Source: an uncultured Acidimicrobiaceae bacterium
GTDB taxonomy: Bacteria > Actinomycetota > Acidimicrobiia > Acidimicrobiales > RAAP-2
Direction of reading: 5' to 3'
Assembly: GCA_963706305.1 (NCBI GenBank)
Contig: OY970152.1
Location: forward strand, 1,531,777 to 1,595,776
Length of the DNA: 64,000 nt
Positions 12,166-31,207 of the stretch are shown here, in pieces; the first letter of the stretch is position 1; each line of letters starts with the position of its first letter. The notes under the pieces are model-generated. The model ran no database searches. It worked only from the letters and a program-made list of their open reading frames with translations, and was not told the DNA's origin. The position numbers and the translations under genes are program-made.

Positions 12166-12194
12166 TTGACAGGTGACACTGATGTACTTAGTAT
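12166..12194 (+). promoter_or_regulatory. Housekeeping sigma promoter of the ROK/alpha-glucan operon
   Basis: TTGACA (12166-12171), 17-nt spacer, TAGTAT (12189-12194). Confidence 0.75.
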
Positions 12195-12198
12195 CTTC

Positions 12199-12210
12199 AC
12201 TTAATTAAGT
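12199..12210. promoter_or_regulatory. Perfect AT-rich palindrome, candidate ROK operator
   Basis: ACTTAATTAAGT directly downstream of the -10 box, in an otherwise GC-rich genome. Confidence 0.6.
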
Positions 12211-12248
12211 AAGTTTCTAATCGCTTAATGCTTCGTCCTAGGGGGAAT

Positions 12249-13595
12249 ATGAGTCGTAAAGAGCCGGACGCTTTGTCCCAACCGGAGCGCTCCCGTGCAG
12301 ATCTCCTGCCAGCGAACGAGGAACGGGAGCCCGCTGTTCGAACCAACCCGCCGCGGGCCTCCCGTTCCCTAATCCGTGACATCAACGTCAGTCTTCTGAT
12401 CGAACTGGTTCGACGTGCCGGTTCGATCTCTCGAGCGGAACTCGCCCGCCAAAGTCAGCTGAGTGCGCCCACAGTGTCAGCCATCGTCGACCACCTCATG
12501 AAGCGCGGCATCGTTGTCGAGACGACCACTGCTCCCTCGAGCGGTGGTCGTCCGCCCGTGCTGTTGAGCGTTGACCCGAAAGCGGGCTACGTGGTGGGCA
12601 TCAAGCTTCGCGGCGACGGGCTCACGACGGTTGTCTGCGACCTCGACGCGCAGGTCGTCTCGAGCGAAGAGCACTACGTGCGTCTCGTGGGCGATCCGAT
12701 CGCTGCCCTTGACGCCATTGAGGAAGCGACTCGGCGCGCGCTGCGCGACGCCGCGGTGCCCGCGTCGAAGGTCCTCGGCGTGGGCATCGGGCTCTCGGGC
12801 ATCATCGATTCGAGCGCCGGGGTGTGTCGGTTCTCGCACCTCCTGCAGTGGCATGACGTTGAGCTTGCTGGGCCTCTGCGTCGACGCATGGGACTGCCCG
12901 TGTGGGTCGAGAACGACGTGAATGCGTTGGCTGTGGCGGAGAAGTGGGCGGGCGACGCACACACTGCGCGTGACTTCGTCACACTGAGTGTTGGTCGTGG
13001 AATCGGTCTTGGCATCGTCGTCGACCGTTCGCTCTATCGAGGAGCGCACGGCGCGGTCGGTGAGTTCGGTCACATGATCGTCGAACCCGGCGGCCCCAAG
13101 TGCGAGTGCGGGCGGTTCGGATGCCTCGAGGCGATGGTCGGAGAAGGAGCCATGCGTCGGCGCATCAGTGAACGAAAAGGACACGACGTATCGCGCGAAG
13201 AGCTCTTGATGCTCGTGGAGCTGGGCGACGCCGCCGCGTTGGACATCGTGGACAATGCCGGACGCAAACTCGGGCTTGCGGTCGCGAACATGGTGACGCT
13301 GCTCAACCCAGAACTGCTCATCATCTGCGGGGAAGGTACGGCGCTGGGTGCCGCGTTCATCGACCCGATTGTGAGCTCAGTGAGAGATCAGACCTTCGCG
13401 GATGTGGGACGTCAGCTTGACATCAAGGTGCAGAGCTGGGGCGACGAAGCCTGGGCCGTGGGCGCGGCGACACTGGTCTTGCGCGAGTCGTTCAATCTGC
13501 CCGGTGCAGATGACAAGAGCCAGGCGATCTGGCACCGATCGGGGTCGTCAACGACGACGGGCTCGAGCGAGTTGAACTTTGTCTACGGGAGCTGA
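12249..13595 (+). CDS. ROK-family transcriptional regulator
   Basis: HTH (ISRAELARQSQLSAPTVSAIV), GGRPP, ENDVNA, GEFGHM, CECGRFGCLE zinc motif; ATG at 12249. Confidence 0.93.
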   Translation: MSRKEPDALSQPERSRADLLPANEEREPAVRTNPPRASRSLIRDINVSLLIELVRRAGSISRAELARQSQLSAPTVSAIVDHLMKRGIVVETTTAPSSGGRPPVLLSVDPKAGYVVGIKLRGDGLTTVVCDLDAQVVSSEEHYVRLVGDPIAALDAIEEATRRALRDAAVPASKVLGVGIGLSGIIDSSAGVCRFSHLLQWHDVELAGPLRRRMGLPVWVENDVNALAVAEKWAGDAHTARDFVTLSVGRGIGLGIVVDRSLYRGAHGAVGEFGHMIVEPGGPKCECGRFGCLEAMVGEGAMRRRISERKGHDVSREELLMLVELGDAAALDIVDNAGRKLGLAVANMVTLLNPELLIICGEGTALGAAFIDPIVSSVRDQTFADVGRQLDIKVQSWGDEAWAVGAATLVLRESFNLPGADDKSQAIWHRSGSSTTTGSSELNFVYGS

Positions 13596-14736
13596 GTTGA
13601 GGAACGGAAACGACGAACACCAAGTGCGACGCAGCGTTGACGCCATCCTGAACAATCAGGACGCCAACGGTGCCATCATCGCGTCGCCGGACTTCGCCCA
13701 GTACGGCTTTTGCTGGCTGCGCGACGCATCCTTTAGCGCCTACGCCCTCGACCTTGCGGGCGAACATGCGGCGTCGACGAACTATCACCTCTGGGTGAAT
13801 CGGGCGGTCACCGGAATCGCCAGCACGATCGACCACGCGATCGCCGCTCGCCTGCAAGGAGACGAGTTGGGCGTCTTGGAGATGCCACCGGCTCGTTTCT
13901 CTCTTGGGGGAACGATCGTCGTCGACGATTGGCCGAACTTTCAGATCGACGGATACGGAACGTGGCTTTGGTCACTTGGTCGCCACCTCGAACTCGCGGG
14001 ATCAACGGACCTTCCCGACGAATATGTCGATTCGGTCGCCCGGGTCGCACGCTACCTCGCCACGTTTTCGTTGAGTCCCTGTTACGACGTGTGGGAGGAG
14101 AACGGCAGTGATCGCCACACCTCAACCCTCGCGTGCGTGTACGGGGGGCTCTCCACCGCAGCGCGCTTACTGAACAACGACGACTACCTCGCTTCTGCGC
14201 TGGAAGTAAAAGAGCACGTCCTCGCGGGTGGCGAGTCAACCGGCTACTACGTGAAGTCGTCGGCCAATAGCGACGTCGACGCGAGCACGCTGTGGCTCAC
14301 TGAGCCCTTTGGCGTTGTGGACGCTGACGACGAGTACTTCGCTGCAACGGTTGCGCTCATCGAGGATCGTCTGACCCTTAACGGTGGCATACGGCGCTAC
14401 CCCACGGACGTCTACTTCGGCAGCGGAGCGTGGCCGGTACTCACCGCATCGATCGGCTGGCACTACGTGGGCATAGGGAATCGTGCGAACGCCGAGCGCT
14501 GTCGTCAATGGATCGCCGACCACTTTGACGGGGAGGCTCGGCTTGCCGAGCAGTATGACGGAGATCTTCGCGACCCTCTTCACTACGAGGAGTGGGTCGC
14601 GCGCTGGGGACGTCCCGCCATCGACTTGACGTGGTCGCACGCCATGTATGTGGTGCTGTGTCTCGCCCTCGAGGGCGAGATGTCGAGTGGCGACCCCGCA
14701 TCAATTGGCCGCGAACGAGACGCGAGATCCAGATGA
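13579..14736 (+). CDS. Glycoside hydrolase family 15 (compact, no signal peptide; isomaltose glucohydrolase-like)
   Basis: FCWLRDASF, FQIDGYGTWLW, YDVWEE (catalytic acid region), LAEQ, LTWSHAMY; start may be TTG 13597. Confidence 0.85.
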   Translation: MSTGAELRNGNDEHQVRRSVDAILNNQDANGAIIASPDFAQYGFCWLRDASFSAYALDLAGEHAASTNYHLWVNRAVTGIASTIDHAIAARLQGDELGVLEMPPARFSLGGTIVVDDWPNFQIDGYGTWLWSLGRHLELAGSTDLPDEYVDSVARVARYLATFSLSPCYDVWEENGSDRHTSTLACVYGGLSTAARLLNNDDYLASALEVKEHVLAGGESTGYYVKSSANSDVDASTLWLTEPFGVVDADDEYFAATVALIEDRLTLNGGIRRYPTDVYFGSGAWPVLTASIGWHYVGIGNRANAERCRQWIADHFDGEARLAEQYDGDLRDPLHYEEWVARWGRPAIDLTWSHAMYVVLCLALEGEMSSGDPASIGRERDARSR

Positions 14737-14886
14737 ACCGAAGTCGCCAACGCAATGCACGGTGGCTCGAGCTTTTGTTGCCGGGTAAGGGGGGAAGGAG
14801 CACACGAGGGCTGATCGGCCCAAGCAGTGAGAACAACGTGAGGTAGGGCCGCGTGGCCCAATGAAGATAGAAAGTGATGCATCAAC

Positions 14887-16191
14887 ATGAAAATGAACAC
14901 ATTTATAAGAGGAAGGACCTCGAAGCCGATTCGACTCTTTGTCGCCTTCGCTGCGGTGGCCTTCGGCGGTTCGATGATCGCGATTACCGGAGCGTCGTCA
15001 GCGCCAACACCGAAGGCTCATTCGGTGGTAACGCTGCAGTACTGGAACACGTATGACCAGGCCGACGGTGAAGGAAGGACGATGGAGAACATCATCATTC
15101 CCCGGTTCGAAAAGCTGAATCCGGGCATCAAGGTGAAGTCGACGTACGTGGTCTACGCGGATTTGCTGCCGAAGTTCATCGCGACGTCAGCAGCTGGTGA
15201 CCCGCCGGACGTTTTACGTTCGGACATTGCCTGGGTGGCGGAACTCGCTCAGCAGGGTCTCGCGGTCAACGTGGGCAAGCTGAAGGGGTATGCGGCGATC
15301 AAAGCGGAGTCTCTACCGGGACCTCTCGCGACAACCGAGGTGAATGGCAAGTATTGGGCATTCGTCTGTGACACGAACACCCAAGCGCTCTACTGGAATA
15401 AGGCGCTCTTCGCCGCAGCGGGACTCTCTGGGCCCCCGACGACATTGGACCAACTGTACGCGGACGCCGCGACACTGACGGTGCCGTCCAAGCAGCAGTA
15501 CGGTTTGGGCGTTGACGGAACGGACATCTGGAACATGGCGCCGTACATTTGGAGCATGGGCGGATCATTTACCAACGCCAACTACACGACGGCATCTGGC
15601 TACATGGACAGCCCAGCGACGATCACCGCAGTGCAGACGTTAGTGAACTTGCTGAAGGCCGGTGACATCGGCAGCGACTTCCAAGGTGGTGCGAGTGCCG
15701 TCTCCGGTGAGACTGGATTCCCCAAGAACGAGTACGCCATGTACATCGATGGCCCGTGGGCAGTTCCCACCTATAACGGAGAGAGCTTCAGCGGCTACGG
15801 CATCGCGCCGTTCCCGAGCGGCTCGGGCGGTTCAGTGTCGACGGTCGGTGGCGAGGACAACATGGTCGCCGCAGACGGCCACCACATCGCCGACGCCGAG
15901 AAGTTCGCCGAGTTCCTCGACTCGCCGTTCGCTCAAGACGAGATGGCCCGACAGGGTGACATGTCGGCCATTACGAATGACGCGGCCGTCGAAGTGAAGA
16001 ACACGCCGTACTACAGCGTGTTTACCAAGCAGCTCCTCACGGCGAGGATCCGCGCGAACAGCGCGGGCTACTCACAGCTGGACACGGATTGGTCCAACGA
16101 GATGGGCCAGATCCTGGCTGGTGACGTCACGGTTACGGCTGGTCTCACGACGGCCGCACAAGAAGCTGATACCGCCCTCGCGGGCAGTTAG
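14887..16191 (+). CDS. Sugar ABC transporter substrate-binding protein
   Basis: N-terminal hydrophobic signal, TLQYWNT, PPDVLRSD, ALYWNKALF, MYIDGPW; followed by two permeases. Confidence 0.92.
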   Translation: MKMNTFIRGRTSKPIRLFVAFAAVAFGGSMIAITGASSAPTPKAHSVVTLQYWNTYDQADGEGRTMENIIIPRFEKLNPGIKVKSTYVVYADLLPKFIATSAAGDPPDVLRSDIAWVAELAQQGLAVNVGKLKGYAAIKAESLPGPLATTEVNGKYWAFVCDTNTQALYWNKALFAAAGLSGPPTTLDQLYADAATLTVPSKQQYGLGVDGTDIWNMAPYIWSMGGSFTNANYTTASGYMDSPATITAVQTLVNLLKAGDIGSDFQGGASAVSGETGFPKNEYAMYIDGPWAVPTYNGESFSGYGIAPFPSGSGGSVSTVGGEDNMVAADGHHIADAEKFAEFLDSPFAQDEMARQGDMSAITNDAAVEVKNTPYYSVFTKQLLTARIRANSAGYSQLDTDWSNEMGQILAGDVTVTAGLTTAAQEADTALAGS

Positions 16192-16198
16192 GTAGTTA

Positions 16199-17143
16199 AT
16201 GGACAAAGAGTCAACCGATCTCCTACAGCGCCCGGCGGCAACTCCGCCGGGCGCTGTAGTGAGGCACCACTACCGAGCGCGGCGGCTACTCACGCCGTAT
16301 CTGTTGCTGCTGCCGGCTGCGTTCCTCTACGTCCTCTTCATCGTCTATCCGATTTTTAAACAGTTCGATATCAGCTTTTACAACTGGCATATCCTTCCCG
16401 GAGCGACCAATCCGTTTGTCGGATGGTCGAACTACGCCAGGATCTTCCATGATCCTGAGCTCAAGACAGCGGCGATCAACACGCTGCTGTTTGCTGTCAT
16501 CACCGTGCCCATTCAGATGGCGCTCGGTCTCTTCGCGGCCGCGCTCGTGACTGATCGAATGCCCGCGCGCGGACTCTGGCGAGCTTTGATCTTCATTCCC
16601 GTCGTGAACTCGTGGGTCGTGGTGAGCTACGTGTTCGCCTACATCTTCGCTGACCAAGGAGGCGTCGCCAACGCCATACTCTCCATCTTCGTCGGCCATA
16701 CCGTCCACGTCGACTGGCTCGCCAATACGTGGACCGGCAACGCGGTCATCTGGATCATGAGCATCTGGAAGGGGATCGGCTGGTCGTTCATCATGTACTT
16801 GGCCGCTCTCGATGGCGTGCCGCGCGACCTCCTCGAGTCAAGTCGTGTCGACGGCGCTACCGAACGAAGGGTCTGGAGATACGTAGTGTTCCCCAGCATT
16901 CGTCCGACCACCACGTTCGTGACGGTGCTGCTCGTCATCGGCGCAAGCCAAGTCTTCACGCAGGTGTACGTCACCACGGGCGGCGGACCATTCGACTCGA
17001 CGGGCGTCATGCTCACCAACGCCTATCAAGATGCCTTCTCGTTCTTCTATTTCGGATACGCCGCCGCCATTGCGTCGCTGATGGCCGTCATCATTCTCGG
17101 CCTCAGCATTTGGTACATACGTCTGATGCGGAGACGACCATGA
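16199..17143 (+). CDS. Carbohydrate ABC permease (MalF/UgpA type)
   Basis: EAA motif LLESSRVDGATERRVWRYVVFP; TTGGGP. Confidence 0.92.
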   Translation: MDKESTDLLQRPAATPPGAVVRHHYRARRLLTPYLLLLPAAFLYVLFIVYPIFKQFDISFYNWHILPGATNPFVGWSNYARIFHDPELKTAAINTLLFAVITVPIQMALGLFAAALVTDRMPARGLWRALIFIPVVNSWVVVSYVFAYIFADQGGVANAILSIFVGHTVHVDWLANTWTGNAVIWIMSIWKGIGWSFIMYLAALDGVPRDLLESSRVDGATERRVWRYVVFPSIRPTTTFVTVLLVIGASQVFTQVYVTTGGGPFDSTGVMLTNAYQDAFSFFYFGYAAAIASLMAVIILGLSIWYIRLMRRRP

Positions 17144-18057
17144 GTGTTGTCACGCTGAAAGATGCTCGAAACGACACCAAAGACCGGCGACTAACCGAGC
17201 GTCGCTCAAAACCGGCTGCGGCCCCAGGTCTCTTTGGCGTGCGATCGTGGAAGAAATCACGCATGGCCCTGGCGATCCTCTTCGGTCTGGCGGCGATCTT
17301 CCCCTTGGTCTACATGGTGTCGCTCTCGTTCCAGCCGACGAGTGACATCCTCACCTCCAATGCGGTGCTCTTTCCCTCGCATCCCACGACGGCGAACTAC
17401 ACCGTGGCCTGGACCCAGAACGGCTTTAGTTCGTACTTCCTCAACAGCCTCATTGTTGCGATCGGTACTGTCGCCATCACCGTCGTCGTCGCGTCGCTCG
17501 CCGCCTTCGCCTTCGCTCGCTACACCTTTCCGTTCAAGGAGGTGGTCTTTTACGTCTTCCTCGCCGCCCTCGCCGTGCCGAGTGTCGAGCTGATCATTCC
17601 CCAGTACCTGCTCATGCTGCGCCTCCACCTCGTGAACTCGCTGTTCGGACTGGTGCTGATCTACGCGAGCGAGAACCTACCATTTTCGATTTTCCTCCTG
17701 CGAGGGTTTTTCGAAGCCGTGCCGAAGGACCTCGAAGAGTCGTTTCGCCTCGACGGCGCGAGCACGCTGCGCGTCCTCACTCGTCTGATCGCGCCGCTTT
17801 CGGCTCCCGCTCTCGCGGTCGTGGCGATGTTCACGTTCAACTTCGCGTGGGAGGAGTTCATCGTTGCACTGACGTTGCTGAACAGTCAGTCGCACTACAC
17901 GCTGCCGATCGCACTGACGTTCTTCATCACAGCGCACCAGACAGACTGGGGACCGCTCTTTGCCGCCTGCACGATCGCGACGATCCCGAGTGTGATTGTC
18001 TACTTCATCTCTCAACGTTGGTTCCAACGCGGCGTTTCGCTCGGAGGAATACGTTGA
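17140..18057 (+). CDS. Carbohydrate ABC permease (MalG/UgpE type)
   Basis: EAA motif LEESFRLDGAS; AWEEF; ATG at 17140 overlaps the upstream TGA. Confidence 0.92.
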   Translation: MSVVTLKDARNDTKDRRLTERRSKPAAAPGLFGVRSWKKSRMALAILFGLAAIFPLVYMVSLSFQPTSDILTSNAVLFPSHPTTANYTVAWTQNGFSSYFLNSLIVAIGTVAITVVVASLAAFAFARYTFPFKEVVFYVFLAALAVPSVELIIPQYLLMLRLHLVNSLFGLVLIYASENLPFSIFLLRGFFEAVPKDLEESFRLDGASTLRVLTRLIAPLSAPALAVVAMFTFNFAWEEFIVALTLLNSQSHYTLPIALTFFITAHQTDWGPLFAACTIATIPSVIVYFISQRWFQRGVSLGGIR

Positions 18058-19652
18058 TCGCCTCTCGTACGTTGAGCGATCTTCGAAGCGCTTATCTTCT
18101 CAATGAGTCGATCGTTGTTGCCGACCTGCCGGACGACACGAGGGATGTCGTCGCGCTGAGTGCGATTGGCGAGGTCTATGGCGCGACCCTTGGTCCCGAG
18201 TCGGCCACCGTCTCGGGTCTTCCCGAGGGCACACACGTCCTTCAAGCACTCTCTTCGAGCGGGAGTGTCCTCGCCGAAGAGTTCTTCACCGTGCGCGGAC
18301 GTCGTGGCGAGGATCCGGTGCCTGGCTTCGTCACGAGCTTCGACGAGGCCTCACGCGACGACGTACTGGCGTGGCTGCGCGACCTTCGCTGTACCGTCGT
18401 CCAGGTCTACGACTGGATGGACAGCTACTCGACGGCGCTCGCCGAATCCGACGACTACGAGGATCCGCTCGGGCGGCCGATCTCTCGAGGTGCGTTGGAG
18501 AGTTTGATTAAAGGCATTAAGGAGTTGGGCGCCGTCGCCCAGGCCTACGCGCCAGTGATCGCGGCTGGTGACGATCTCGCGGGCGAGCACCCCGACTGGC
18601 GTCTCTATCGAAGCGACGGGGCGCCCGAATCCCTGGGCGACCTGTTGCAGATCATGAATCCCGGCAACGGCGAGTGGCAGGCGTACTGGATCGAGAACTA
18701 CGGAGGAGCCGCCGACGCGCTCGGTTTCGATGGATTTCATCTTGACACGTACGGCTACCCTCGCGACGCGATGAACGTCGCTGGGGAGTGGGTCGATGTC
18801 GCTGGTGGCTACGGTACCTTCGTCGACGTCGTTCGCCGAGTTCGACACTCCGACGTGCTGAGTTTCAACCAAGTGAACGGCGTGCCGCGAGGTTTCCCGG
18901 CGCCCGAGCCGCCGAGCTTTCGCTACGTGGAGGTCTGGCCTCCGAATGATCGATGGCGCCATCTCGAAGGACTGCTCGAGCGCAGCGGCAACAAGGAGCG
19001 TCAAGGTGAGACGCTCGCGCTCTATCCGCCGGTCTGGGGCGCAGGTCGTGATCTTGCGCTTCGCACGTGCGTGCTGAGCGAGGCGGTCTCGACGGCACTC
19101 GGGGCCAACGTTTTGATCTGGGGCGACAACGACGGCGTGCTGTGCCATCCCTACTACGTCAATCACGAGACGTTGACGAGACATGAGCGCGAGGTGGCGC
19201 TCCGCTGGCACCGTTTCGGGTTGCGCTGTCGCGACCTCTTTCGCGCGGCGACCGACACCAGTTGGTACGAGCTGAGCGACGAGAACGCCTCGATGAAGGT
19301 GTCGTGGGCGGGAGAGACGCGGCCCGAGCCTGCTGGCGGTTCGTTATTCGCTCGGGCCTTTCGAGATGAGCACCTCATCGTGGTGAGCCTGCTCGACCTG
19401 ACGGGCAGCGAAGACGGCTCCTGGTCGTCCGGAACGCGAAGAGGGACCTGCACGAGCGCCGATGTCGAAGTGCTAATCGATGCGCCCGAGTCGTGGTCGG
19501 TCGACGTGTCGGTCCTCGGTCGCGATGAGGGGCGCTTCGCGCCCAGCGAATACGTTGAAGCGACCATGCGCGAGGGCACTGGCATTCGCGTGTCGGTCCC
19601 CATCGACGAAGGATGGTCAGTGCTGCGCCTGACGCCGAAGACGCCGTCGTGA
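18054..19652 (+). CDS. Glycoside hydrolase family 66 (dextranase / cycloisomaltooligosaccharide-active), cytoplasmic
   Basis: VVQVYDWM, IMNPGNGEWQAY, GFDGFHLDTYG (nucleophile Asp region), RYVEVWP (acid/base Glu region); TTG start with GGAGGA RBS; no signal peptide. Confidence 0.8.
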   Translation: MIASRTLSDLRSAYLLNESIVVADLPDDTRDVVALSAIGEVYGATLGPESATVSGLPEGTHVLQALSSSGSVLAEEFFTVRGRRGEDPVPGFVTSFDEASRDDVLAWLRDLRCTVVQVYDWMDSYSTALAESDDYEDPLGRPISRGALESLIKGIKELGAVAQAYAPVIAAGDDLAGEHPDWRLYRSDGAPESLGDLLQIMNPGNGEWQAYWIENYGGAADALGFDGFHLDTYGYPRDAMNVAGEWVDVAGGYGTFVDVVRRVRHSDVLSFNQVNGVPRGFPAPEPPSFRYVEVWPPNDRWRHLEGLLERSGNKERQGETLALYPPVWGAGRDLALRTCVLSEAVSTALGANVLIWGDNDGVLCHPYYVNHETLTRHEREVALRWHRFGLRCRDLFRAATDTSWYELSDENASMKVSWAGETRPEPAGGSLFARAFRDEHLIVVSLLDLTGSEDGSWSSGTRRGTCTSADVEVLIDAPESWSVDVSVLGRDEGRFAPSEYVEATMREGTGIRVSVPIDEGWSVLRLTPKTPS

Positions 19653-19716
19653 GATCCGCAGAAGTGCGAGCAGCGAAGGAACAATCGCTCGGTGTCCCCG
19701 AGTGGAGAGGCAACAC

Positions 19717-20892
19717 ATGACATCGGTACGACTCGACAGCGTCTCCAAGATCTATCCCAACGGGTTCGAGGCCGTGTTCGACCTGGACCTCACGATCGAA
19801 GACGGCGAGCTGATGGTTGTGGTTGGGCCATCAGGCTGCGGCAAGACCACGGTGCTGCGCATGATCGCGGGTCTTGAAGACATCACCTCGGGCACCGTCA
19901 GCTTTGGTGATCGCGTCATGAACGAAGTACCGCCGAAGGACCGCGACGTCGCCATGGTCTTTCAGAGCTACGCGCTCTACCCACAGATGACGGTTGCTCA
20001 AAATATTGGCTTCGCGCTCAAGATGAAAAAGATGCCCAAGGAAGAGATTGATCGTCGCGTACGCGACGCGGCGGCGGTGCTTGGGCTCACCAACTGGCTA
20101 AATCGCAAGCCGACGCAGCTCTCGGGAGGCCAGCGTCAGCGCGTCGCGATGGGGCGCGCGATCGTTCGAAGCCCGAGCGTCTTCTTGATGGACGAGCCAC
20201 TGTCGAACCTCGATGCCAAGCTCCGAGTGCAGCTTCGCGCGGAGATCGGCCGTGTGCAACAGCAGATCGGCGTGGCCACGCTGTACGTCACGCACGACCA
20301 GACCGAGGCCATGACGCTGGGGCATCGTGTTGCGGTATTGCGCGACGGCGTGTTGCAGCAAGTCGATTCACCCGAAGTCTTGTATCAACGGCCGCGCAAC
20401 ATCTTCGTCGCGGGATTCATCGGATCGCCGGCGATGAACCTGCTCGAGGGGACGCTGTCGCCCGAAGTCGACGCCGTTGCTCTCGGAAGCCAGCGGATCA
20501 TGCTGCCGAGCGACGTGGTGAGCCAGCATCCGGGGCTCAAGAATTTTGCGGGTAAATCCATCGTCGTGGGCATCCGTCCGGAGGACCTCCCGGCCGCCGA
20601 AGGTGACAGGGACGGACAGATTCTTACCGGCGACGTCCACTTGGTCGAGGCGCTTGGGGCAGAAAAGCTCGTGCACTTTCGATTTGACGCCCCCATTGTT
20701 CAGCTCGAGGATACGTCAGTCACCGAAGAGGGCGACGAAATCCTCGTGAGCAACCAGTCGGCCATCTCCGAGTGCGTCGCGCGCATACAGCCACAGTTTC
20801 ACGTAAGCGCGGGCCAGCGTTTCAGCTTTCGGGTCTCACCCGAGAAGCTCGAATTCTTCGACGTCGAGACGGGCATCTCGATCTGGGAGTAG
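19717..20892 (+). CDS. Sugar ABC ATP-binding protein (MsmK/UgpC type)
   Basis: GPSGCGKT, VFQSYALYP, LSGGQRQRVAMGRA, DEPLSNLDAKLR, TOBE-like C-terminus. Confidence 0.95.
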   Translation: MTSVRLDSVSKIYPNGFEAVFDLDLTIEDGELMVVVGPSGCGKTTVLRMIAGLEDITSGTVSFGDRVMNEVPPKDRDVAMVFQSYALYPQMTVAQNIGFALKMKKMPKEEIDRRVRDAAAVLGLTNWLNRKPTQLSGGQRQRVAMGRAIVRSPSVFLMDEPLSNLDAKLRVQLRAEIGRVQQQIGVATLYVTHDQTEAMTLGHRVAVLRDGVLQQVDSPEVLYQRPRNIFVAGFIGSPAMNLLEGTLSPEVDAVALGSQRIMLPSDVVSQHPGLKNFAGKSIVVGIRPEDLPAAEGDRDGQILTGDVHLVEALGAEKLVHFRFDAPIVQLEDTSVTEEGDEILVSNQSAISECVARIQPQFHVSAGQRFSFRVSPEKLEFFDVETGISIWE

Positions 20893-22207: not shown

Positions 22208-25200
22208 TCAGGCTCCCACTGGGCTCTTGCGGCGGGCCTCGGCAATGGCGACGAAACACGCGGCGTACTGATTCGGCGCCACCTCGTCGAGCTCCGGCGT
22301 GACGGTCTTGCACTCTTCGATGGCGTACGGACAACGGGGTTGGAACCGGCATCCAGGCTTCGGGTCAACGACCTTTGGCGGCTCACCGGCGTCGATCGAG
22401 ACGGACTCGTCGAGAGGACTGCGGGGATCAGGCACGGCCGAGAGCAGGAGCTTGGTGTAGGGATGACGAGGGTCGGTCAAGATCTGTTCGGCCGGGCCGA
22501 CTTCAACGACATGGCCCGCGTACATGACGAGGATGCGGTCGGCGATGTAGCGCGCCGAGGCGAGGTCGTGGGTGATGTAGAGGATGGAGACATCTTCGCG
22601 CTCTCGAAGGTTGGCCATGAGATTGAGGATGCCGACGCGGATGGAGACGTCGAGCATTGAGACGGGCTCGTCGGCGAGAATGAGCTTCGGTCGCAGCACG
22701 AGCGCTTGGGCGAAACCGATCCGCTGGCGTTGGCCGCCGCTCAGCTCGTAGGGATACTTATCGAGCATCACCTCCGCGGGCTCGAGGCCGACGGCTTCCA
22801 TGACCCGGATCGCCTCGGAGCGCCGCGCTGACGCATCGAGGTCTGGTCGGTGCAGCTTGATCGCTCGCATGATTCCGTGTGAGACCCGATACGAAGCGTT
22901 GATCGCGCTGTAGGGATCTTGGAACACCATCGGAACCTCACCGCGGTACGCCAGCTTCTCCTTTCGCCCCCTGATGTCGTTGACCGGCTGACCTTCGAAG
23001 CGAATGACTCCCGAAGACGGGGAATAGAGCGACGCAAGGAGACGGGCGATCGTGCTCTTGCCACTCCCGCTCTCGCCCACCAGCGCGACGATCTCGCGCT
23101 TGCCGATCGTGAAGCTCACGTTGTCGACAGCGTGCAGGAGCTTCTCCGACCAGAAACCCCGCATTCGGAATGTCCTCGTCAGATTGGATACCTCGAGCAG
23201 CGGGGCGGGTTCCGCGTCGGGTGAAGTGGAGTCCGACAGCGGCTCACTCTGCAGCGCAACAGCGTCGAGCGCCGCGCCGTCGTTGATTGCTCGTCCCGAG
23301 CGCCCGGCAAGACTCCCCGTTTCAGGCGGCGCGTCCGTGTAGAGCAGGCAGCGGACGTCGGACCCGCCCACGCGATAGAGGGGCGGCTCGATGACCGAGC
23401 ACTGGGGCATCGCGTCGGCGCAGCGAGGTTGAAAACGGCAGCCGGGCGGAGGTATGAGGAGATTCGGCGGGGAGCCGGCGATACCCGTGAGGGGGATCTT
23501 CTTGCCGCGGATCGATGGATACGCCTCGAGCAGCGCGCGGGCGTAGGGGTGGCGCGGCGTGTCGAAGACGGTTGCTGTTGCCCCAAGCTCGGCCACCTGC
23601 CCGGCGTACATGACCATCAGTCGGTCCGAGAAGTGTCGCACCAGCGAGATGTCGTGAGTCACGAAGATCACAGCGAAGCCCAATCGCTCCTGGAGCTCCT
23701 TGATCTGGTGCATCAGAGAACGCTGTCCAACGACGTCGAGGGCAGAGGTGGGCTCGTCCATGACGATCAGGTCTGGCGTGAACAACAGCGACATGGCGAT
23801 CATGGCGCGCTGACGCATGCCGCCCGACAGCTGGTGGGGATAGCTGTTGAGATGGATGGGATCGATCGAGACGAGGCGTAGTACCTCGGCCGACCGATCG
23901 GCGATCTCGTCCTTCGACATCGCCGAGTGCGCCTTGCAGGCGTCACGCATCTGCTGGCCTACGGTCATCACTGGGTTCAGCGCGTTCATCGCATTTTGCA
24001 TGACGACCGAGAAGTCGCGCCAGCGCAGATGGCGCAGTTGGTTGTCACTCATCTCGGCCATCTCTTCACCGCGAAAGGTCACGCTCCCGCCAATGATTTC
24101 GGCCGGCGGGTTGAGCAGTCGGCTGATGGCAAAGACCAAAGTCGACTTGCCGCAGCCAGACTCACCCACGATCGAAAGGAACTCCCCTCGGTGCAGATCG
24201 AGGTCGACGTCGTCGACCGCCACGACCGGACCGGCGTCGCTGGCATAGGCGACCGAGAGGTTGCGAACTGATAGCAGCAGATTCGACGACGATGTTTCCC
24301 CGGCGTCGCCTCGGCTTACGACGTCGGGCTCGTTCGAAGGGGTAGTGAGTGACGGGTCAGCGGGGACCTGAATCCCGCGCGGGCGCGGAGAGCGACGCAC
24401 GGGCCGCAGCGCCGGGTTGGCGATCTCGTCGAAGGCGAAGTTGATCAAGGCGAGTGACCCACCGAAGAGGGCGAGGCAGACGCCCGGCATGATCGCCCAC
24501 AGCGCTAGACCAGATTGGAGCGCCGCTTGTTGATACGACCAGTACAGCATCGTGCCCCAACTCTGAGCATTGGGGTCACCGAGGCCGATGAACTGGAGCC
24601 CGGCGGCAGTGAGTACGGCGAAGACGGCGTTGAGACAAAAGGCGGCCACGATCAACGAACTCATCGACGGCAGCATTTCTGCCGTGATGATGTAGCTGGT
24701 GCGTTCGCCGCGGACGGCGGCTGCTTTGAGAAAGTCTCGGTTGCGCATTGAGAGCGCTTGCACGCGCAGCTGGCGAGCGCTGTAGGACCAGTTCAGGGCA
24801 CCGAGGATGATGATGATGTCAAGCAGACCAGCGCTCTTCAAATACGCGGCGATGATGATGAACAGCGGGAAGATTGGAATGACGAGCAAGATGTCGGTGA
24901 TCGTCGAGAGGACACCGTCGGTCACGCCGCCGACATACGCGGACGCGACTCCGATGAGTACCGCAACAAGCGTGGCGATGGCGCCCGCCGCGAAGGCAAT
25001 GATGAGCGACTGACGCGCCCCCCAGATGAGCTGAGAGAAGATGTCTTGGCCGAACGACGTCGTGCCGAGCCAGTGGGCCGCCGAGGGAGCCAGGTTCGGC
25101 GAGAAGCTCTCGGCGCTCGGGCTGTAGGGGGCGATCAGACCTGGAAAGACGGACAGCACAAGAAAGAACAACAGAAAGAACAAGCCGATTTGCGCCTTGC

Positions 25201-25345
25201 GATTGCGCACGAGGTTAAGCCACATGTTGTTACCGCGCGAACGCTCCTCACGAGCGATCGCGCGCTTGGCGTCGACGTCGTCGTGAGCGATGACGACTGT
25301 CACATCTTCTGGGAGCGTGTCGTCAGGGCGGTTTGAATTCGACAT
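22208..25345 (-). CDS. Fused Opp/Dpp ABC permease + two ATPase domains (OppC-OppD-OppF)
   Basis: HWLGTTSFGQDIF permease; two Walker A motifs (GESGCGKST, GESGSGKST), two LSGG signatures, two Cys-rich GCRFQPRC C-terminal domains in one 1045-aa ORF. Confidence 0.9.
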   Translation of the reverse strand: MSNSNRPDDTLPEDVTVVIAHDDVDAKRAIAREERSRGNNMWLNLVRNRKAQIGLFFLLFFLVLSVFPGLIAPYSPSAESFSPNLAPSAAHWLGTTSFGQDIFSQLIWGARQSLIIAFAAGAIATLVAVLIGVASAYVGGVTDGVLSTITDILLVIPIFPLFIIIAAYLKSAGLLDIIIILGALNWSYSARQLRVQALSMRNRDFLKAAAVRGERTSYIITAEMLPSMSSLIVAAFCLNAVFAVLTAAGLQFIGLGDPNAQSWGTMLYWSYQQAALQSGLALWAIMPGVCLALFGGSLALINFAFDEIANPALRPVRRSPRPRGIQVPADPSLTTPSNEPDVVSRGDAGETSSSNLLLSVRNLSVAYASDAGPVVAVDDVDLDLHRGEFLSIVGESGCGKSTLVFAISRLLNPPAEIIGGSVTFRGEEMAEMSDNQLRHLRWRDFSVVMQNAMNALNPVMTVGQQMRDACKAHSAMSKDEIADRSAEVLRLVSIDPIHLNSYPHQLSGGMRQRAMIAMSLLFTPDLIVMDEPTSALDVVGQRSLMHQIKELQERLGFAVIFVTHDISLVRHFSDRLMVMYAGQVAELGATATVFDTPRHPYARALLEAYPSIRGKKIPLTGIAGSPPNLLIPPPGCRFQPRCADAMPQCSVIEPPLYRVGGSDVRCLLYTDAPPETGSLAGRSGRAINDGAALDAVALQSEPLSDSTSPDAEPAPLLEVSNLTRTFRMRGFWSEKLLHAVDNVSFTIGKREIVALVGESGSGKSTIARLLASLYSPSSGVIRFEGQPVNDIRGRKEKLAYRGEVPMVFQDPYSAINASYRVSHGIMRAIKLHRPDLDASARRSEAIRVMEAVGLEPAEVMLDKYPYELSGGQRQRIGFAQALVLRPKLILADEPVSMLDVSIRVGILNLMANLREREDVSILYITHDLASARYIADRILVMYAGHVVEVGPAEQILTDPRHPYTKLLLSAVPDPRSPLDESVSIDAGEPPKVVDPKPGCRFQPRCPYAIEECKTVTPELDEVAPNQYAACFVAIAEARRKSPVGA

Positions 25346-30010: not shown

Positions 30011-31207
30011 CTAACGCTTCATTACCCGCTGCCACGCGTGCTCGGCGCCGACCGCAAGACCGCCTTGGACGATGGCGTCTTCGCCGAGCGCACTCGCGCG
30101 CAGTGCGAGCGGCAGCCTGACGAGTGGGCGCAGCTCGCGCTTGACGAGCTCAACGAAGTAGTCGGCCTGTCCGATCCCGCCGCCAAGAACAACCAAGTCG
30201 AGGTCGACGACGGCAGTGATCGAAGCGATCGACCGGGCAATGAGGTTCGCTTCGTCGGCGACGACTCGAGTGCATAGCTTGTCGCCTTGCTCGGCGGCGG
30301 CGAAAATGCGGCGGGCCGTCACGACGCCGCTCATCTTGGCTTGCTTCGCCGCGCGCACCACGCCTGCTGCTGACGCCGCTGCCTCGAGCCATCCGCGAAG
30401 CCTCGCGTCTTTCGGGTCGACGCCGCGGTCGCTTCCGAGCGTCATGAAACCAATTTCACCGGCGCCACCGTGCGAGCCTCGATGGAGGTTGCCATCGAGG
30501 ATGAGGCCGAGACCAATGCCTGTCCCTACCGAAACGAAGCCGAAGTTCTGCACGCCTTGCGCCGTACCCACGTCGCGTTCGGCGAGCGCCGCGAGGTTGA
30601 TGTCATTTTCGACCACCATGTCCCCGCCGAAGGCACGGCGCAGCTCGGCGAGCACCTGCGGACGTTGCCAGCCGGGCAGACCTCGCGCCATGAAGAGAGC
30701 GTCGCGGCGACGGTCGTAGATTCCGGGACTGCCGATCACAGTTTGGGTGACGGCCGACCTCTTGATCTTCACCGTGGCCACGAGCTCGTCGGCGAGTTTC
30801 ACCAGCTCCGAGACGCGACCGGCGCTGCTCGACGGATGTACCCTTCGCTGGCCACGCCCCCTCACTGTGCCCGAGAGATCGGCGATAGCGCCGCGGACGT
30901 ACTCGCGCCCGACGTCAAGTCCGAGAATGAAGCCTGCCTCGGGGCGAAGCTGGTAGAGCGCGGGCGCGCGCCCGCGACGGCCGGAGATCCGACCGGCCAC
31001 TCGGATCAATCCCTCATTTTCGAGAGTGGCGAGCGCCACGGCCACCGTCGGCTTCGACAGGCCCGACACTGCTGACAGTTCGCTACGCGAAACACTTTCG
31101 AACTTTCGAATCTGTTCGAGGAGGAGTTGCTCATTAAGTGCTCGCATAAGGCTCGGACGGGCCGCCAGTACTTGCGGCGTGTTCGAAGACTCGTCGTCGT
31201 GTTGCAT
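30011..31207 (-). CDS. ROK-family transcriptional regulator (NagC-like)
   Basis: HTH (VSRSELSAVSGLSKPTV), GRRGRAP, ENDINLAALAE, GAGEIGFM; lacks the Cys zinc motif. Confidence 0.88.
   Translation of the reverse strand: MQHDDESSNTPQVLAARPSLMRALNEQLLLEQIRKFESVSRSELSAVSGLSKPTVAVALATLENEGLIRVAGRISGRRGRAPALYQLRPEAGFILGLDVGREYVRGAIADLSGTVRGRGQRRVHPSSSAGRVSELVKLADELVATVKIKRSAVTQTVIGSPGIYDRRRDALFMARGLPGWQRPQVLAELRRAFGGDMVVENDINLAALAERDVGTAQGVQNFGFVSVGTGIGLGLILDGNLHRGSHGGAGEIGFMTLGSDRGVDPKDARLRGWLEAAASAAGVVRAAKQAKMSGVVTARRIFAAAEQGDKLCTRVVADEANLIARSIASITAVVDLDLVVLGGGIGQADYFVELVKRELRPLVRLPLALRASALGEDAIVQGGLAVGAEHAWQRVMKR

Follow-up and report, generated by a model that had tools for sequence, protein, structure and literature searches.

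A 64,000-nucleotide stretch of the genome of an uncultured Acidimicrobiaceae bacterium (GenBank assembly GCA_963706305.1, contig OY970152.1), referred to here as the window, contains a cluster of seven genes that we analyzed as a predicted operon for the import and intracellular breakdown of alpha-1,6-glucan oligosaccharides. The window is part of the single 2.97-Mb contig that makes up the host genome, which is about 95% complete, and its closest public relatives are uncultured Acidimicrobiaceae and Acidimicrobiales metagenome-assembled genomes (MAGs) from soil and peat. All seven genes lie on the plus strand between positions 12249 and 20892, in the order ROK regulator, GH15 enzyme, solute-binding protein (SBP), two ATP-binding cassette (ABC) permeases, GH66 enzyme, and transporter ATPase (Table 1). 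Pfam gives the family of each gene and agrees throughout with an earlier note on this DNA, whose genes, families, and coordinates are confirmed. All seven reading frames are intact, and stop and start codons overlap at three junctions (ROK/GH15, permease 1/permease 2, and permease 2/GH66), the last of which is also kept in orthologous loci. The complete seven-gene order was found in about 30 species of the Acidimicrobiales and Solirubrobacterales, with GH66 identities of 45 to 82%, and because it recurs in this way, the arrangement is not due to chance.

TABLE 1 Genes and noncoding elements of the cluster, in window coordinates
Feature	Position	Strand	Basis
Sigma-70-like promoter (TTGACA, 17-nt spacer, TAGTAT)	12166-12194	+	Promoter scan
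Perfect AT-rich 12-bp palindrome, ACTTAATTAAGT	12199-12210	+	Candidate ROK operator
ROK transcriptional regulator, N-terminal winged helix (NagC/Mlc type)	12249-13595	+	PF00480, E 6e-57; HTH_24/MarR
GH15 enzyme, predicted cytoplasmic, catalytic domain only	13579-14736	+	PF00723, E 1e-22, 80.7 bits
Two small G+C-rich hairpins, GH15-SBP spacer	14808-14821 and 14846-14859	+	Conserved in 7 species
Extracytoplasmic SBP, TdCIBP type, N-terminal signal or anchor segment	14887-16191	+	SBP_bac_1, E 5e-32
ABC permease 1, MalF/UgpA type	16199-17143	+	PF00528 (BPD_transp_1)
ABC permease 2, MalG/UgpE type, start overlapping the permease 1 stop	17140-18057	+	PF00528 (BPD_transp_1)
GH66 enzyme, 532 aa, no signal peptide; domains N, A, and C, no CBM35	18054-19652	+	PF13199, E 5e-47
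Dedicated ATPase, MalK/MsiK/UgpC type	19702-20892	+	ABC_tran and OB_MalK

RESULTS

A divergent GH66 enzyme lacking a signal peptide

The assignment of the sixth gene to GH66, made in the earlier note, is borne out by profile, fold, and active-site evidence. The Pfam model scored 161 bits against a cut-off of 23.7, with the match confined to profile positions 96 to 478 of 546, which correspond to the barrel only. Since the score with the NCBIfam equivalog model EndoDexBT3087 (81 bits) fell far below its cut-off of 730, the protein is best regarded as a member of the family and not as an orthologue of Bacteroides thetaiotaomicron BT3087, and the B. thetaiotaomicron enzyme was its best sequence match in the PDB (E 3e-17). 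An AlphaFold2 model built from a 31-sequence alignment, with a predicted local distance difference test score (pLDDT) of 91.1 and a predicted template-modeling score (pTM) of 0.92, comprised an Ig-like domain N, a (beta/alpha)8 barrel, and a Greek key domain C. The top 18 PDB matches to this model in a Foldseek search were all GH66 enzymes, with template-modeling (TM) scores of 0.76 to 0.80 and E values of 1e-30 to 1e-37; GH13 enzymes came next, at TM scores of about 0.5. In alignments with BT3087, PsCITase, and GH66 enzymes of the Bacillota, D120 (YDW) falls on the essential Asp, D231 (FDGFHLD) on the nucleophile, and E293 (YVEVW) on the acid/base, so that the family motifs for the nucleophile (FDGxHxD), the acid/base (YxExW), and the third Asp (YDW) are all in place. 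Across 31 sequences, D120 and E293 never vary, and D231 shows at least 90% conservation. The Asn of the -1 subsite is retained as well.

The same note had described the enzyme as compact and devoid of a signal peptide, with a start at position 18054, and this description holds. A Shine-Dalgarno sequence, GGAGGA, precedes the TTG codon at that position, which shares nucleotides with the permease 2 stop codon; the N terminus (MIASRTLSDLRSAYLLNESIVV...) has no hydrophobic signal segment, and the protein start, reading MIASRTLSDLRSAY..., likewise carries no signal-like hydrophobic stretch. All characterized GH66 activities are on alpha-1,6-glucan (preprint 10.64898/2026.08.30.748175), and we consider the protein to be a probable cytoplasmic endo-alpha-1,6-glucanase that would cut or open imported oligosaccharides.

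The actinobacterial enzymes constitute a large, uncharacterized clade with hundreds of metagenomic members, all of them automatically annotated as "dextranase," and a recent network analysis of GH66 would place them among the clusters with "no functionally characterized enzymes" (10.64898/2026.08.30.748175). They share DxYG[YF]P[KR] and EVWPP-ND motifs with a clade of signal-less Bacillota enzymes. A kinship with the cycloisomaltotetraose (CI4) glucanotransferase (CI4Tase) of Agreia was also considered but is not supported: the best PDB match, 9SJG with its sister entries, belongs to the dextran utilisome of B. thetaiotaomicron, the CI4Tase being represented by 24TK to 24TM, and therefore no special relationship with CI4Tase is indicated.

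The importer and the GH15 enzyme

The proposal that the transporter takes up isomalto- or cycloisomalto-oligosaccharides (IG and CI, respectively; numerals give the glucose units) gained support from the SBP, whose top PDB match was TdCIBP of Tepidibacillus decaturensis (9XF5/9XFU; E 8e-66, 35% identity over 379 aligned positions), the runner-up being GacH (4e-25). These two entries represent TdCIBP with cycloisomaltooctaose (CI8) and with isomaltoheptaose (IG7); the protein binds CI7 to CI9 and linear IG with a degree of polymerization (DP) of at least 3, does not bind isomaltose (IG2) or glucose, prefers rings to linear chains, and has affinities for linear IG4 to IG7 in the submicromolar to micromolar range (PMC13084667). 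The 15 ligand contacts listed in that study were mapped through a HMMER alignment and compared in 26 actinobacterial orthologues. In the window SBP, 11 of the 15 are identical, and Y94, R115, D117, N168, W217, W290, E322, and R389 (TdCIBP numbering here and below) are invariant in the 26 orthologues, with E66 present in 25. The conserved central contacts hold Glc3 to Glc5 in TdCIBP (PMC13084667), and because they are kept and invariant, the SBP very probably recognizes the same type of linkage. The peripheral contacts S63, R91, W275, and D403 are variable, and the size of the ligand and the choice between ring and chain may differ from those of TdCIBP, in which Trp275 stacks on Glc1 and Glc8 of CI8 (PMC13084667). 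Seven of the nine residues that are reported to be conserved among CI-binding proteins (E66, R91, R115, D117, N168, W217, W275, W290, and R389) are kept in the window, six of them invariant in the 26 orthologues.

The permeases fit this relationship, with identities of 41 to 43% (permease 1) and 42 to 44% (permease 2) to the corresponding permeases adjacent to TdCIBP in Tepidibacillus. The ATPase scored 445 bits with the UgpC subfamily model, exceeding its cut-off, and is kept 3' of the GH66 gene in most orthologous loci; translation may in fact begin at the ATG at 19717.

For the GH15 protein, the earlier note had pointed to a resemblance to Kribbella isomaltose glucohydrolase, and the structural database agrees: the Kribbella flavida enzyme (KfIG; 5Z3A-F) was the sole solved family retrieved, at E 9e-63 over residues 14 to 361 of 385. 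The window protein, 37 to 38% identical to Kribbella orthologues, has the (alpha/alpha)6 catalytic domain homologous to that of KfIG and no N-terminal beta-sandwich. By alignment, its acid catalyst is E173, the counterpart of a residue that we take to be Glu178 in KfIG. Tyr48, Asp56, Glu335, Gln336, Trp350, and Ala358 of KfIG correspond to Y42, D49, E324, Q325, W339, and A347, and the retained residues include the general base Glu335 and the alpha-1,6-specific Trp350 of KfIG (PMC12446779); Pro334 and Tyr291 are replaced by Ala and Phe, respectively. The protein is a probable glucohydrolase of isomaltose or short isomalto-oligosaccharides, orthology not being assured at 37% identity.

Genome-wide search for alpha-glucan enzymes

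The earlier note had viewed the host as a scavenger on the grounds that the locus contains no secreted producer enzyme, and an examination of the whole 2.97-Mb genome extended this view. The GH66 gene of the operon is the only one in the genome, and two operon-carrying relatives also have a single GH66 gene each. No match to the GH13 alpha-amylase family was found in the genome, with 13 of 14 control genomes giving matches, and none to GH31 or GH70; GH49 was likewise without a match, but no control genome matched either, so that its absence is not established. Cycloisomaltooligosaccharide glucanotransferase (CITase), GH15 4(6)-alpha-glucosyltransferase, and GH31 6-alpha-glucosyltransferase all failed to appear in the genome. 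Because no CITase, dextransucrase, or alpha-1,6-forming transferase was found, the organism would be unable to make its own substrate, which agrees with scavenging.

The lack of GH13 and GH31 matches is unusual in a free-living bacterium and implies that there is no classical glycogen, maltodextrin, or TreS/TreYZ metabolism. In the searches that we ran, the only apparent alpha-glucoside hydrolases were the enzymes of the operon and a second GH15 protein of the trehalase type, encoded elsewhere in the genome.

Promoter region and spacer elements

The NagC and Mlc models align with the ROK regulator from end to end, with scores under their equivalog cut-offs. Its start at 12249, as given in the earlier note, is upheld by a conserved GGGGGAA Shine-Dalgarno sequence directly upstream, whereas the alternative ATG at 12228 is not conserved in relatives. 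Between the predicted promoter and this start lies the palindrome ACTTAATTAAGT, which was missed by the inverted-repeat scan, spotted by eye, and then confirmed by pattern search and alignment. It occurs once in the window, where 0.14 occurrences are expected by chance, and six species share, without a single change, a block of about 34 nt that takes in the -10 element and the palindrome, while the flanks have diverged. From this conservation, the palindrome is a candidate operator of the ROK repressor.

The two hairpins in the spacer between the GH15 and SBP genes are followed by an invariant ATAGAAAGTGA block immediately 5' of the SBP start. Their stems are invariant across the seven species and so provide no covariation support, and no Rfam family matched anywhere in the operon or its spacers; a role in mRNA processing or stability is possible.

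Occurrence in related genomes and surroundings of the operon

Of 301 genomes sampled from the family, 13 carried the operon, and every carrier belonged to one large genus; a wider sample of 401 genomes from the class gave a GH66 match of whatever kind in 5. Broken-up copies occur in several relatives (L013, L028, L030, and L032). The patchy spread, together with the occurrence in Solirubrobacterales, suggests that the operon is an accessory, horizontally mobile trait. Carrier genomes in the family sample measured 2.1 to 2.5 Mb, and the listed noncarriers of the same genus measured 1.3 to 2.4 Mb.

The genes upstream of the regulator (encoding MurA, MeaB, and a small membrane protein) were ruled out as members of the operon, their synteny being limited to close relatives. 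Further along the window, on the minus strand, positions 22208 to 25345 encode in a single frame of 1,045 aa an OppC-type permease domain, two ABC ATPase domains, and two oligo_HPY C-terminal regions, and positions 30011 to 31207 encode a second ROK-family protein of 398 aa, matched below cut-off by both sugar-kinase and NagC/Mlc models.

DISCUSSION

We suggest that the cluster is a substrate-inducible operon through which the host scavenges alpha-(1->6)-linked gluco-oligosaccharides that other organisms produce; we consider this reading probable, and the substrates are likely to be linear isomalto-oligosaccharides, with a DP of about 4 or higher, and/or cycloisomalto-oligosaccharides. Outside the cell, the TdCIBP-type SBP would capture the oligosaccharide, which would be brought in intact by the two permeases with the ATPase encoded in the operon. 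In the cytoplasm, the retaining GH66 enzyme would cut the chain internally or open the ring to yield short isomalto-oligosaccharides, from which the inverting GH15 enzyme, of the isomaltose glucohydrolase type, would free glucose. The ROK/winged-helix protein probably represses the operon through the palindrome over the promoter, with release by a sugar effector. What is proposed here for the substrate, for the sequence and direction of the enzymatic reactions, and for regulation is deduced from homology. Intact import followed by intracellular hydrolysis had already been proposed in the earlier note and is supported here from both sequence and predicted structure.

Several observations weigh against this proposal. 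In the SBP and its orthologues, the CI-binding protein residues Arg91 (Tyr or variable; Tyr87 in the window SBP) and Trp275 (Thr or variable; Thr276 in the window SBP) have been lost, and the loop at Trp275 carries a three-residue insertion. The GH66 clade has Thr for Gln after the nucleophile and Tyr for His after YDW, its window member is no more than 28% identical to any Bacillota GH66, and in a maximum-likelihood tree covering the cytoplasmic and the secreted Bacillota clades, the actinobacterial clade joins at the midpoint root, its branch (3.55 substitutions per site) being too long for either to be named as its sister group; on account of the low identity, the partial Pfam coverage, and the very long branch, the specificity of the enzyme could have shifted. 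The cytoplasmic location is predicted from the missing signal peptide and the putative operator of the regulator from conservation, and all functions within the clade have been assigned from homology.

A narrower view would have the operon dedicated to cyclic isomalto-oligosaccharides only, either CI7 to CI9 or CI4, with the GH66 protein acting as a ring-opening hydrolase and not as a general endo-dextranase, and the organism exploiting rings that other bacteria make as a private store, such as the CI4 of soil Actinomycetota (Agreia and Microbacterium). We regard this as unlikely, but it has points in its favor: TdCIBP favors rings over linear chains (PMC13084667); the sole characterized intracellular GH66 enzyme, that of Paenibacillus sp. 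598K, is CI induced and degrades CIs, according to the account of that work given in PMC13084667; CI4 and its GH66 synthases stem from soil Actinomycetota (10.64898/2026.08.30.748175); and the replacement of R91, W275, and D403 around unaltered central contacts could suit a different ring size. On the other side, TdCIBP also binds linear IG4 to IG7, and a CI8-like mode of binding is made less likely by the missing Trp275, given the stacking of this residue on Glc1 and Glc8 of CI8; ring and chain are indistinguishable from sequence. The known intracellular dextranase reportedly cleaves long linear IGs as well, which would also count against an exclusive use of rings. A related notion, that the divergent GH66 clade and the remodeled SBP together target an alpha-1,6 ligand unlike that of the Bacillota, for example, CI4, is one that we entertain with little confidence; if it were true, the locus would be a dedicated "cheater" operon with which streamlined, uncultured Acidimicrobiia harvest the private-store cyclic sugars of their neighbors.

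It is less probable still, and in our view quite improbable, that the GH66 clade has another specificity or reaction altogether and that the operon serves a different alpha-glucoside, such as mixed-linkage or branched alpha-glucans (alternan, pullulan, or panose fragments), or a transglycosylation. The length of the GH66 branch, the partial Pfam match, and the substitutions beside the nucleophile and in the YDW-xxx-H motif would fit such a change, but the three catalytic carboxylates have been kept, as has the Asn of the -1 subsite, Thr after the nucleophile is found in some ordinary Bacillota GH66 enzymes too, and the central site of the SBP and the alpha-1,6-specific Trp of the GH15 enzyme are two independent partners that both indicate alpha-1,6 linkages. 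That the cluster is a decaying or nonfunctional remnant of a horizontal acquisition, as its patchy presence in a single genus (13 of 301 family genomes) and the fragmented copies in relatives might suggest, is hardly credible given the seven intact frames, the overlapping stop and start codons at three junctions, and the conservation of catalytic residues and the promoter block across species, the fragmented copies being from long-read MAGs, in which we take frameshift errors to be common.

We favor the scavenging of alpha-1,6-linked oligosaccharides, linear or cyclic. Since the hosts would be unable to make the substrate themselves, this suggests that alpha-1,6-glucan oligosaccharides are shared or stolen goods in soil. 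The GH66 clade also comes with a set of partners for biochemistry, namely, a binding protein, a GH15 enzyme, a regulator, and a putative operator.

The earlier note knew of no characterized example in this lineage, and with regard to the lineage this stands; the concept itself has precedents. Uptake of CIs has been documented in Paenibacillus sp. 598K, where they are degraded inside the cell by an inducible GH66 dextranase without a carbohydrate-binding module (Mizushima 2019, pmid 31273396, as relayed in PMC13084667), and for T. decaturensis, uptake by the TdCIBP transporter followed by the action of an intracellular dextranase and an isomaltose glucohydrolase has been proposed (PMC13084667). 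In view of these two routes, the logic of the pathway is already published and is new only for this lineage.

The kinship with the CI-producing Bacillota is close in layout. Among 80 loci around TdCIBP homologues, 57 have the order SBP-permease-permease-GH66, and the identical order ROK-GH15-SBP-permease-permease-GH66 occurs in Clostridia/Eubacteriales MAGs (L159 and L162), the genome of the former having only one real GH66 gene. Bacillota loci of the TdCIBP type (L124, L126, L138, L146, L187, and L194) often have two non-CITase GH66 genes, one encoding a protein of about 600 aa with a signal, lipoprotein, or transmembrane N terminus directly after the permeases and the other a signal-less protein of 530 to 577 aa; the two types form separate, well-supported clades. 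The window operon and the Bacillota system share a homologous SBP (35% identity), homologous permeases (about 40%), a signal-less GH66 enzyme without a carbohydrate-binding module directly after the permeases, a GH15 enzyme of the isomaltose glucohydrolase type and, in some loci, a ROK regulator. They differ in that the window genome lacks CITase and the two glucosyltransferases of GH15 and GH31, in that its GH66 enzyme lies on a separate long branch at no more than 28% identity, and in the loss of Arg91 and Trp275 from the SBP; the window operon also includes an ATPase gene, whereas no nucleotide-binding domain was found in the operon of T. decaturensis (PMC13084667).

The second comparison is with KfIG (EC 3.2.1.205; 5Z3A-F and 7C24-27) and its locus. 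Close homologues of this isomaltose glucohydrolase are widespread in Actinomycetes. Like the window enzyme, KfIG is a GH15 protein consisting of the catalytic domain only, with the same catalytic Glu, Glu, and Tyr and alpha-1,6-specific Trp, and its gene likewise stands beside those for a ROK regulator and a CUT1-type ABC transporter. The order differs, being ROK-permease-permease-(SBP)-GH15 in Kribbella-type loci, and the possibility that such a locus already holds a GH66 gene was ruled out by 80 loci from Kribbella and other Actinomycetes (L041 to L120), none of which contains one. These loci probably import isomaltose-sized sugars, for which no endo-enzyme would be needed.

Finally, the secreted or surface GH66 endo-dextranases, namely, BT3087 (9SJE-H), TpDex of T. 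pseudethanolicus (5AXG), and the enzymes of F. johnsoniae (8IU8) and S. mutans (3VMN), and the CITases of B. circulans and Paenibacillus (3WNK and 5X7G) have the three-domain fold and the catalytic residues in common with the window enzyme, with only 14 to 17% identity in structural alignments, but the latter has neither the signal peptide nor the CBM35 insertion. Its gene belongs to an ABC importer operon and its predicted setting is intracellular, whereas the secreted and surface enzymes belong to polysaccharide utilization loci or act extracellularly. Set against these systems, what is new is the absence of producer enzymes, an ATPase gene within the operon, the conserved palindrome at the promoter as a putative operator, the remodeled periphery of the SBP, the divergent GH66 clade, and the host lineage (uncultured Acidimicrobiia and Thermoleophilia), and the pathway is thereby extended from CI-producing Bacillota to uncultured Acidimicrobiia and Solirubrobacterales of soil and peat.

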